A stretch of 24,110 bases of DNA from the IMG/VR virus record IMGVR_UViG_2534681831_000037. One strand, given 5' to 3'. The position numbers are program-made. The stretch comes from a virus. Its lineage: Duplodnaviria; Heunggongvirae; Uroviricota; Caudoviricetes. Position 1 is the stretch's first letter. The number at the start of each line of letters is the position of its first letter. Below, piece by piece: positions 6,001-9,000 of the stretch.

Positions 6001-9000
6001 TTCGTAGGCTAAATACGCTGAAAGCTCTGTGTTTCCCTGCCTGATGTGCAGCTCGCATAGCGAACCGCGAACCATCCAGACAAATATCAGAATGGTGATG
6101 CAAACCACCACCAGACAAAACACATAGCTCCTTCGCATTACAGCCCCCTGTTAGTTGATTTCTTACTGTTAAGAGGCTAATCTTTATGTGTCGCATACAG
6201 AATGCCTCAGATTAATGTTAAGCGTCTTGCCGGACGCGTAATGTTAACTGGGGCTTTTCTCTATCTACCTTTGGTGTTCATGCCCGAGGCAGATAGCCTC
6301 AAGCACCCACAGCAATTCTAACTATCCAATACATCACTGCCAACACTTTAAACTCTTACCCTTTAAAACAAGAACAAAATTCAACCAATCAGCATTGGGC
6401 GTATACTCATATCCTAGAGAAAACAACTCTTTCTGTACTATTTATATCCATATGATTTATAAGCATTTGCCACTTGCCATAGCCGCACAATGACAGTTTG
6501 CCATTTGATGTCAATAGATAAAAATGATCGTTTTCAATGAGTTACATACTTGCAAGGCGTTGCACATCAGGCCCGATTACGTCAGTATCAAAAGATTACA
6601 GATGGTGCATTACTGCCACCTCGCCTTAATGTTCCAGAACCCTCCAACTTGAGGAATTTTCAATGACATCCTTTCAATTATCTTTGATTTCTCGTGAAAT
6701 TGACGGCGAAATAATACATTTACGTGCCAAAGATGGTTACATAAACGCCACATCAATGTGTAGAACTGCGGGCAAACTGCTCTCTGATTACACTAGACTC
6801 AAAACTACTCAAGAGTTTTTTGACGAATTATCACGCGATATGGGAATTCCCATATCGGAGTTAATTCAATCATTTAAAGGTGGAAGACCTGAAAACCAAG
6901 GGACATGGGTGCATCCTGACATCGCTATTAATCTAGCGCAGTGGCTATCGCCCAAATTTGCAGTCCAGGTTTCAAGATGGGTTCGTGAATGGATGTCAGG
7001 GGAAAGAACTACAGCAGAAATGCCTGTACATTTAAAACGGTACATGGTTAATCGTAGTAGAATTCCTCACACGCACTTTTCTATTCTTAATGAACTGACA
7101 TTCAACTTGGTTGCACCTCTTGAACAAGCAGGGTACACACTCCCAGAAAAAATGGTTCCTGACATTTCACAAGGAAGAGTATTTTCACAATGGTTAAGAG
7201 ATAATAGAAACGTAGAACCCAAAACATTCCCTACCTATGACCATGAATATCCCGATGGTCGCGTATACCCTGCAAGGCTGTACCCAAATGAATATTTAGC
7301 AGATTTCAAAGAACATTTTAACAATATTTGGTTGCCGCAATATGCCCCGAAATACTTCGCTGACCGGGACAAAAAGGCTCTCGCCTTGATTGAAAAAATT
7401 ATGCTACCTAACCTCGATGGCAATGAACAGTTCTAAATGATTAGCCAGCCCCATAAGGGCTGGTTATTTAGTATTATCAACCCCAGTGGCAAATCGAATA
7501 CACCACCAGCGCCACGGCCATTGCAATTCCTGTCGTTGTGAATGCCTCAGGCCAGGTCATTGATTCACCTTCTGCTCAATATTTTTAAGGTCATTTTCCG
7601 CATACAGTATTGCAGTTCTTGCTGCCCGCAACCGTGCTTTGGTGTTCTTTTCTTCACGCTCGAGGCTGGCAACAGATTCTCGGAGCTGATCGCGTCTGTT
7701 ATGAAGCTGTCTAATCTCTCTCACCACAGCCTCACCATCGTTCGCACACCGCAGAACATACTGAAAAGGGTCCACAACACATCCGCACTGCAAGCACAGG
7801 ATAACGCGATCCTGTTCATGAACCTCAATGGCCCGATGCTTACAGCTCTGTTGTGTGTAGTTTTTTCTGCCAGTTACTGTAATGTTCAGCAGCTTCTCTT
7901 CATCGCGCTTTGGCTGCACCAGTGTGATGATATTATCGCCTTCATTTTCCATCAGTTCACCTCCTGCGGCGGTTCTGGTAGCGGCATCCAGTGTGTGGCC
8001 TGTTCAATACCATTACCATCAATACCATTACCAGGCGCAACCGTTATCTGCCCACGCCGAAAGGTGCTTCCGGTATAGCGTGCGGAGCATATTAGCGGCT
8101 CAACCAGATCACTATCGAAATTCACCGAAATAAGCACGTTCTGGCCCTTTTCAGGCATTCGATCACTACAGCTTATCCAGCCATCCGTAGTTACCGGAGA
8201 ATTGCCAGCCTTGCGCATGGCAATCTCCATGATTTCAACCATATCCCCTGGTGGAATTTTACAATGCTGACCAGTATGCCTCTGCTGTCTGGCATATTCG
8301 AGGATGTGCTCCAGCTTGGTACGATTAATCATGATTTATCTCCCTTAAGCATGGCAGCGCGGCAGGCATCCTCTACGCCCTTAACTGCATCTGCGCAGTA
8401 GTTATAGCGATTGCATTCCACTAACTTCTGCTTGAGATTTTCAATTGATTGCGCGATATCAGCCTGTATTACCGGAGCTGGCGGAACGGCTGTCTGCACT
8501 CGAACGTCATCAGGTACTACCGGCTCTACTGCCAACTGACTGGCATATTTGTTAATGGTAACGATAAGCTCTTGCTCGGCCTCATCCAGACAATCACCGA
8601 TACCTCGCCTGTCACCGTCAAAATCATCGAAATCGGCGCGAATCCTGGCAACCTCCCGGATTGCGGACAACACCTCACCAGGAATTACCGTAGAGTTGCC
8701 CGATAGTACATTCTGCTCCAGTGATGCCAGTGCAATCCGTGCCAACTCACGAATCTCACCGCCGTCTATATCGTCAATGTCATCACGGCCATAAATGTTA
8801 GCCAGCCATTGCAGTCGCTCTTTGGTAATAGTGATCATGCCGCGTTTCCTTCTTTCTTATTAACAATTACACCGTCATATATTTCATTAAGGTGCCCTCT
8901 CAACTCCATGCGCCTTAAGGCAGACAACATGTAATCGCATTCAACCTGCTTATTCCCAATAAAAGGTTTATCTTCAGGGTTACCCCAACAGCAATTCCCC

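Follow-up and report, generated by a model that had tools for sequence, protein, structure and literature searches.

The 24,110-nt stretch of DNA analysed here (hereafter, the window; IMG/VR virus record IMGVR_UViG_2534681831_000037) carries at 6663–7436, on the plus strand, a gene that, as judged from profile matches, homolog comparison and genomic context, most probably encodes an abortive-infection defence protein of the BstA family, being a member of a short subfamily with a canonical KilA-N domain and part of an autonomous cassette beside the hok/sok toxin–antitoxin system. Within the KilA-N coding region of this gene, a perfect 22-bp palindrome was found (CGATATGGGAATTCCCATATCG, 6836–6857, no strand assigned), which encodes residues 58–65 (R-D-M-G-I-P-I-S) and is very probably a nucleic-acid element maintained by selection. 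This conserved intragenic palindrome is the most unusual feature of the locus and had been missed in the original prediction, which was made from the sequence of the window alone and whose interpretation of the gene was partly supported by the present analysis. The whole window was 100% identical to a Rac-like lambdoid prophage present in the Shiga-toxin-producing Escherichia coli (STEC) O111 strains 95NR1, 95JB1 and 8B, inserted beside yebY and the ryeA/sdsR locus and presenting a backbone of integrase, racR, replication, nin/Q, lysis and head genes. Positions given for the window correspond to those of record L001 minus 12601.

Assignment of the gene to a short BstA subfamily

The open reading frame (ORF) of 257 aa that had been predicted at 6663–7436 (+) was confirmed in the window, with a Shine–Dalgarno-like GAGGA motif read from the sequence at 6651–6655 (+), 7 nt 5′ of the ATG, and its product corresponded to RefSeq WP_000200358.1, which is labelled 'KilA-N domain-containing protein'. 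The expected N-terminal domain, a KilA-N DNA-binding domain of the APSES-type winged-helix kind, was located by Pfam at residues 14–112 (6702–6998, +; E = 4.3e−27), and its wing signature was kept as KGGRPENQGTW, with G73, G74, Q79, G80 and W82 being invariant or nearly so. The C-terminal half, described originally as matching nothing, proved instead to match a curated domain, so the 'unrecognised' region is explained as the BstA-like C-terminal domain of a gene family that is already known. This putative effector domain (PF26567) extended over residues ~119–254 (7017–7424, +) and was supported by both PADLOC and PHROG matches. In particular, the full-length protein matched PHROG 6287 ('BstA abortive infection system, replication inhibitor') with E = 2.7e−89, the match reaching residue 254, and the C-terminal 143 aa alone matched the same family with E = 1.6e−54. 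The PADLOC model of BstA covered residues 119–238 (E = 3.2e−21 for the full protein, with 1.2e−21 also given). Moreover, PF26567 and PF04383 were precomputed in a large protein collection for the cluster of the query and for all of its best 120 homologs, PF26567 being a newer family that the local copy of Pfam does not report. The same domain is carried by the canonical BstA of BTP1 and its homologs, and is named 'BstA-like C-terminal domain' in UniRef. The NCBIfam search of the window protein gave no match, and neither did a PDB fold search with its C-terminal domain.

The BstA family was defined as a group of prophage-encoded proteins that bring about abortive infection and localize to phage DNA undergoing replication (Owen et al. 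2021, PMC8585504). They comprise a KilA-N-like N-terminal domain and an uncharacterized C-terminal domain, and their defence activity is known for the proteins of BTP1, E. coli (BstA-Ec) and Klebsiella (BstA-Kp) (PMC8585504). The window protein shares with these three its prophage origin and the arrangement of a KilA-N-type N-terminal domain and a PF26567 C-terminal domain, but it is ~50 aa shorter than canonical BstA. When compared to BstA-BTP1 by blastp, an identity of 31.7% was obtained over 142 aa, all within the C-terminal domain (BTP1 residues 164–302), in which the motifs IP..hFS..E, VPDIS.G, H.YP and YP.E.L..F were common to both proteins. No N-terminal similarity between them was shown by BLAST, and the N-terminal domain of BstA-BTP1 needs remote-homology methods to be recognized, whereas that of the window protein is a canonical Pfam KilA-N domain. 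Furthermore, the alignment by hhalign of the short subfamily with canonical BstA (98.2% probability, E = 3.4e−14) was colinear over both domains, covering residues 1–237 and 10–281, respectively, with 13 residues invariant in both subfamilies (R126, N130, F139, S140, E144, D167, S169, G171, W177, H194, P208, F215 and Y231). The AlphaFold2 model of the window protein also presented two domains, with a mean predicted local distance difference test score of 91.5. Family membership, the two-domain architecture and the positional equivalence with BstA-Ec described below are established by these comparisons.

It is very improbable that the protein is a KilA-N antirepressor or a prophage transcription regulator with no part in defence. 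The KilA-N domain alone does match PHROG 129 ('transcriptional regulator', E = 9e−25), the annotation 'antirepressor' is common among KilA-N and ORF6N proteins, and an ORF6N gene fills the same slot in other prophages. However, abortive infection has been demonstrated for homologs of the C-terminal domain (PMC8585504), and BstA was the best full-length match (300 bits vs. 89). In addition, no ANT/KilA-C or Bro-C domain was found in the window protein by Pfam search, the gene was exchanged exactly with that of BstA-Ec in one slot, and it is antiparallel to the early operon and accessory (2.6% of genomes); the conserved core antirepressor that the original prediction had named as its alternative was thus not encountered. 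An analogy with Roi of HK022, a DNA-binding protein of the nin region inhibiting lytic growth, was also considered and rejected, Roi being of the Rha/ANT type and the HK022 nin region lacking such a palindrome.

An autonomous cassette shared between unrelated prophages

All the annotated genes between ~1844 and 14960 (~13 kb) were found on the minus strand, with the bstA-like gene as the one exception; its description as the lone plus-strand gene of a minus-strand run was therefore right, the run being longer than the 11 kb originally attributed to it. The GC content, which had seemed lower by eye, was indeed 0.38–0.44 over 5400–7600 vs. ~0.47–0.51 in both flanks. Downstream of the gene, and in agreement with the terminator proposed for it, an intrinsic-terminator-like structure was located at 7442–7476 (+), consisting of a hairpin (7442–7466; 10-pair stem with 6 GC pairs and a loop of 5) followed by a T-rich tail, and the bstA locus of BTP1 likewise has a terminator of its own. 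Upstream, a non-coding region of 317 bp (6346–6662, +; GC ~0.39) contained no annotated feature and would presumably hold the promoter. Expression from an autonomous promoter is to be expected from the orientation of the gene, given that it runs against the early operon and is followed by a terminator of its own; a sigma-70-like match present at 6498–6525 was weak (9/12).

The gene is contained in a mobile cassette of 1.39 kb (6170–7560, no strand assigned), comprising part of the hok/sok leader, the 317-bp upstream region, the bstA-like gene and the terminator. The 1391 bp of this cassette were 99% identical to two other records (L003 and L007), the flanks being unrelated on both sides. The comparison of synteny proposed earlier thus revealed a variable insert moving between unrelated prophage backbones, and the gene was carried by ~139 of 5426 complete E. 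coli genomes (2.6%), as would suit the autonomous moron, and not core gene, that had been predicted. The window allele appeared at ≥98.7% identity in ~117 E. coli genomes, and a second, sister allele in ~22, the two genes sharing 77% DNA identity and 86% protein identity. The 317-bp upstream region accompanied the window allele only (117 genomes), the sister allele being without it. Three prophage backbones harboured the window allele, and in each of them it was a nin-region neighbour of hok/sok, oriented opposite to the early operon (hok adjoins it in L001, L007 and L010). The bstA-like gene was also present in the sequenced phages vB_EcoS-673R7, vB_EcoS-666R9 and PhiR5_2.

The bstA genes are frequently, but not universally, found directly downstream of the prophage repressor (PMC8585504). 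This canonical position was occupied by the sister allele, 31 bp beyond a repressor of the cI/LexA or XRE type (PhiR5_2, G1/2 and H5), and differs from that of the window gene, which is antiparallel in the nin region with its own upstream region. Moreover, in two prophages the same cI (97.4% identity over 820 bp, up to its stop codon) on one side and matching downstream DNA (90.5%) on the other enclosed different genes, the slot holding BstA-Ec in strain 2012C-4431 and the sister allele of the short subfamily in strain G1/2. Since the same flanks hold either gene, this precise swap of cassettes suggests that BstA-Ec and the short subfamily perform the same function, and it constitutes the strongest contextual argument for it. 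Separately, the sister allele of E. coli H5 (L009 7001–7762), where the preceding repressor is of the XRE type, was split into two ORFs, encoding a KilA-N protein of 113 aa and a hypothetical protein of 113 aa, which is likely a frameshift inactivation of the defence gene.

A covarying palindrome within the KilA-N coding region

The palindrome was first flagged by a repeat scan and a self-reverse BLAST match. It was the sole perfect palindrome with arms of at least 8 nt in the 24-kb window, arms of 11 nt appeared in 1 of 200 shuffles, and no further copies of it or of its half-site were found in the window. Despite the overall DNA identity of 77%, the sister allele retained 21 of its 22 bases. 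Its conservation was examined in a sample of 80 homologous loci, one genome per species, which together with the window made 81 loci (51–86% protein identity) ranging from Enterobacterales to Verrucomicrobiota, Bacteroidota, Planctomycetes, Myxococcales, Nitrospirota and lineages of the candidate phyla radiation. At the identical codon position, 8 or more of the 11 pairs were complementary in 47 of the 81 loci, 18 of them being perfect, with a bimodal distribution of scores, and the palindrome was kept in at least 19 protein clusters (65% identity). The arms varied in a compensatory manner (ATATG/CATAT, AAACG/CGTTT, ATGCC/GGCAT and CTGCG/CGCAG), and the encoded peptide varied with them: DMGIPIS for CGATATG.../...CATATCG, ETGIPVS for CGAAACG.../...CGTTTCG, DAGIPAS for CGATGCC.../...GGCATCG, SAGIPAD for GTCTGCG.../...CGCAGAC and VMGIPIT for CGTTATG.../...CATAACG. 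The core of the palindrome alternated from GGAATTCC to GGTATACC through a double synonymous change.

Among the 47 loci, the covariation score was 0.348, compared to 0.129 ± 0.013 in shuffles (0/500) and ≤0.091 in slid registers, and the number of double-sided arm changes was 77 vs. 28 expected. Pair 18–27 illustrates this pattern, being GC in 33 loci, CG in 13 and unpaired in none. That these 47 loci were picked by their palindrome score is a caveat, but the scores were bimodal, and neither the double-change counts nor the slid controls result from such a choice. Furthermore, when synonymous codons were resampled with the peptide fixed, 7.2 of the 11 pairs were obtained vs. 10.0 observed, and 85% of the palindromic loci had individual P-values below 0.05 (0.0045 for the window).

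Regarding the protein, residues G61–L67 formed in the alignment a 7-residue insert relative to Mbp1, located between helix B and the first wing strand. This insert distinguishes the window KilA-N domain from the APSES/KilA-N winged helices of Mbp1, PCG2 and Bqt4, from which the window protein also differs in being of bacterial/phage origin and fused to a putative defence effector. In the PCG2–DNA complex, helix B reads the major groove, and the wing motif QxGxGxxQ reads the minor groove CGCG (PMC4333399). Judging from this alignment, the palindrome encodes a permissive loop between two DNA-contacting elements of its own candidate binding domain.

Relocated and free-standing copies of the palindrome

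Four lineages without the intragenic copy (L021, L039, L089 and L041) presented, past the stop codon and ahead of a distinct, bona fide terminator, a palindrome of 22–28 bp whose arms were of the types already described (CGATATCG and CGATGCCG). In the nin slot of E. coli C311, an ORF6N gene was flanked on one side by the hok/sok leader (93% identity) and on the other by the post-terminator region (91%), and the identical palindrome, extended to 26 bp, appeared 17 nt past the ORF6N stop codon, within a 49-nt remnant 88% identical to the bstA-like coding sequence. Palindromes linked to ORF6N in this way were present in ~157 E. coli genomes, including O157:H7, O145, O103 and O113 strains and many STEC, with the copy of O157:H7 FRIK944 retaining 10 of the 11 pairs.

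The exact 22-mer had more than 120 matches in IMG/VR, and 104 of the 120 that were examined had no KilA-N ORF over the palindrome, with at least 20 flanking contexts. The commonest context of these orphan copies was the hok/sok slot without any gene (55 viral contigs, e.g. L097:2659–2680), and others adjoined genes for helicase-primase, NinB, RecE, integrase, methyltransferase and head proteins. Two other natural variants of the palindrome had 10 and 50 matches in the same database, compared to a single match for a chimeric control with non-palindromic arms. Canonical bstA genes are without the intragenic 22-bp palindrome of the window gene. Free-standing copies in hok/sok-adjacent nin slots with no bstA-like gene were also located at L091:1504–1529 and L215:2515–2536. 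In the giant-virus-like contig L225, a KilA-N ORF (1296–2648) had tandem GIPV/GIPI/GIPVS units with two palindromes 60 bp apart, suggesting that the palindromic unit can duplicate in frame.

Comparison with aba and proposed function

In BTP1, the start codon lies within the 63-bp aba element, whose function depends on the direct repeats (CCCGCC) bounding it at both ends; aba provides DNA-based self-immunity and also works when transplanted to P22 or on a plasmid, at high copy number and promoterless (PMC8585504). A scan for 6-mer direct repeats from −60 to +70 around the start codon recovered the CCCGCC repeats of BTP1 (−28/+28, period 56). At the BstA-Ec locus (L005, E. coli O178:H19 2012C-4431), the same scan yielded an ATCCCT direct repeat (−34/+23, period 57), which alone was not significant and is a candidate for the unmapped boundaries of aba-Ec. 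Other repeats of the window were discarded, namely the TTTGCCA repeats up- and downstream of the gene (12 in the window vs. 7.25 expected, not significant) and further repeats of the cassette, such as TTTTCAATGA (two copies), which were at chance level. Like aba, the palindrome is a short DNA element embedded in the locus of the defence gene itself and inseparable from it; it looks DNA-based, and its orphan copies exist apart from the coding function, as aba does in the transplants to P22 or a plasmid. It differs from aba in being a 22-bp perfect inverted repeat placed 174 bp into the coding sequence, and in being found as well in KilA-N genes that are not BstA-like.

By analogy with the BstA proteins of BTP1, E. 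coli and Klebsiella (PMC8585504), the window protein would be made in the lysogen, from its own promoter. Its N-terminal KilA-N winged helix would engage phage DNA undergoing replication, and the BstA domain at its C-terminus would block the replication of a superinfecting phage, with the infected cell being lost. The lysogen-protective function that the original prediction had suspected was hence upheld as to its kind, through membership of an abortive-infection family; that the protein is expressed in the lysogen, acts through abortive infection and inhibits replication is what we infer from that analogy. As for the palindrome, it would be a duplex or cruciform DNA site for this protein or for the KilA-N domains of its branch, and its copies, multiplying with the replication of the prophage, would titrate or silence the protein and so confer self-immunity, while the orphan copies of other phages would serve as decoys or as common recognition sites. 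This preferred reading of the palindrome as a KilA-N DNA ligand with an aba-like role in self-immunity is offered tentatively, its chances being well below even, and it is supported by the retention of the palindrome after gene loss in the same slot, by its relocation upon loss of the intragenic copy and by the precedent of aba-BTP1. It is rather doubtful that the palindrome would, beyond this, be read by the very KilA-N domain it helps to encode, with defence gene and antidote being inseparable and the copies of rival temperate phages acting as evasion decoys. The putative decoys would include the copies of Shiga-toxin (Stx)-type prophages of O157, O145 and O103, in which the palindrome occupies the same hok/sok slot and the gene is missing.

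A number of observations weigh against these proposals. With regard to the gene, the experimentally tested BstA proteins are ~23–32% identical to the window protein, in the C-terminal domain only, and the window gene is not downstream of the repressor, being ~7.6 kb from racR (15085–15561). No convincing promoter was found in its upstream region, where promoter-like matches were no commoner than in shuffles, and no direct repeats of the BTP1 type straddled the start codon from −60 to +70, either in the window or in the sister allele. With regard to the palindrome, a clade of 25 homologous loci was entirely without it, and it was also missing in scattered single lineages. Moreover, it was present in KilA-N genes without the BstA C-terminal domain in 27 of the 50 matches of variant 3 and in 6 of the 10 matches of variant 2, including giant-virus metagenome-assembled genomes (MAGs) and jumbo-phage contigs; because of these genes, the palindrome is not specific to BstA but belongs to a branch of KilA-N coding sequences generally. 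A high-GC phage contig (L252) held five arm variants, and other contigs held two. The palindromes of L252 were perfect and had the GGAATTCC core (5152–5227, 3819 and 9539), three of them being intergenic, at an exact period of 27 bp after the major capsid gene. Such a multiplicity of arm variants per genome argues against a one-to-one cognate specificity of the arms, and strictly cognate immunity is weakened by it together with the non-BstA KilA-N genes carrying the palindrome and the clade devoid of it, all three favouring instead the general KilA-N box considered below. Finally, the palindrome region is predicted to fold stably as RNA (−19.2 kcal/mol, z = −4.46), a stability reached by 0 of 200 shuffles.

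Two other explanations of the palindrome were weighed against the ligand with a role in self-immunity. Under the first, which is held to be only slightly less probable, it would be a general KilA-N box, whether the operator of a regulator, the target of a sensor on invading DNA or a self-propagating unit in a surface loop, with no role in self-immunity. The KilA-N genes with unrelated C-termini that carry it, those of giant-virus MAGs and jumbo phages among them, speak for such a box, as do the orphan copies near replication, recombination, packaging and integrase genes, the multiple arm variants per genome with the one intergenic array, the tandem GIP units of L225 and the insert at residues 61–67 relative to Mbp1. 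However, the palindrome was kept in the hok/sok slot after gene loss in two independent configurations, and its relocation just past the stop codon when the intragenic copy was lost denotes a tight link to the gene, which would be superfluous for a generic box. The lack of any associated transposase or recombinase and the single copy found in the 24-kb window also speak against this explanation.

The second explanation is an mRNA hairpin, serving as a site for RNase III, as a pause in translation or as a stabilizer, in which the covariation would arise from RNA pairing. The predicted stability mentioned above is in its favour, the relocated copies are upstream of the terminator and hence still transcribed, and covariation alone cannot separate RNA from DNA. 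Nevertheless, a hairpin of this kind is considered quite improbable. Only 3 of the arm mismatches were G-U wobbles vs. ~29 others, with no wobble enrichment, and strand asymmetry of the mismatches was absent (GT/TG 13, AC/CA 13). At the centre, the 4 nt that an RNA hairpin would need for its loop were kept self-complementary (AATT or the double synonymous TATA) in 32 of 46 loci, as corresponds to a dyad without a loop. A larger RNA fold that includes an outer stem (GAAUUA/UAAUUC) was rejected, as that stem presented no significant covariation. Rfam 15 gave no match over the palindrome at gathering scores and, at E-values up to 1, nothing in 6300–7560 except a spurious microRNA match at the terminator. 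Moreover, the orphan copies appeared in unrelated intergenic contexts. A dyad at the DNA level is thus favoured by the lack of wobble bias, the self-complementary centre, the outer stem that does not covary, the absence of an Rfam family and the relocated copies, as well as by the orphan copies and the rarity of the chimeric-arm control, and it is more likely that the palindrome acts as DNA rather than RNA.

Neighbouring genes and other elements of the window

Next to the bstA-like gene, the hok toxin gene of a type I toxin–antitoxin system was identified at 5986–6138 (−; Pfam HOK_GEF, E = 9.6e−20), and the sok antitoxin/hok leader region at 6136–6308 (−; Rfam RF01794, 93.9 bits vs. a gathering score of 59). 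The complete hok/sok module covered 5986–6345 (−), with a promoter-like site at 6343–6315 and a terminator at 5901–5918, and it makes up with the bstA-like gene a low-GC accessory islet of two genes. Lambda RexAB and other repressor-linked abortive-infection morons, as well as hok/sok, are likewise lysogen-expressed accessory genes in mosaic hot spots of lambdoid prophages. The RexAB-type morons and hok/sok also protect by killing infected cells, as is predicted here for the bstA-like gene, their proteins and mechanisms being unrelated to it. In the case of hok/sok, exclusion of T4 has been reported.

Elsewhere in the window, the stretch 3132–3967 (−) resembles a c4/ant immunity module of the P1/P7 type, here within a lambdoid prophage, with an ORF6N-domain gene (3132–3713) just downstream of the C4 antisense RNA (3767–3851, Rfam) and Rfam matches to the a1b1 target of C4 (3914–3967) and to isrK (3877–3954). 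The anti-GcvB small RNA (sRNA) AgvB (1200–1261, +) and STnc100 (1262–1454, −) were found beside a tRNA-Arg/Arg/Ile cluster (1567–1815, −), as in Stx-type prophages. A RalR/RalA type I toxin–antitoxin pair was present in 21572–21942, with the RalA sRNA at 21764–21942 (−), and the ryeA/sdsR sRNA pair (23504–23648) was located at the prophage–host junction, adjoining the integrase and yebY.

Significance

With respect to the published family, the new elements of this locus are the short subfamily, its non-canonical position, the lack of an aba of the BTP1 type and the covarying embedded palindrome with its orphan copies. No description of such a palindrome in BstA or KilA-N genes was found in the searchable literature, the coverage of which is incomplete, so its novelty is unproven. 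In terms of annotation, entries of this type labelled 'KilA-N domain-containing protein' should be assigned as BstA-like defence proteins.

BstA is among the few defence systems with a described DNA-based element of self-immunity, and the locus supplies a compact candidate ligand for it, a 22-mer with natural compensatory variants, orphan copies and relocated copies. The recognition of phage DNA by BstA and its silencing by aba thereby become simple questions of binding and genetics. If the orphan copies do act as decoys, they would represent a new anti-defence determinant made only of short DNA, invisible to protein annotation and common in Shiga-toxin prophages. Even if the reading in terms of immunity is wrong, the palindrome would be a nucleic-acid element dictating the covariation of amino acids in a widespread viral DNA-binding domain, with a range extending from enterobacterial prophages to giant-virus MAGs.

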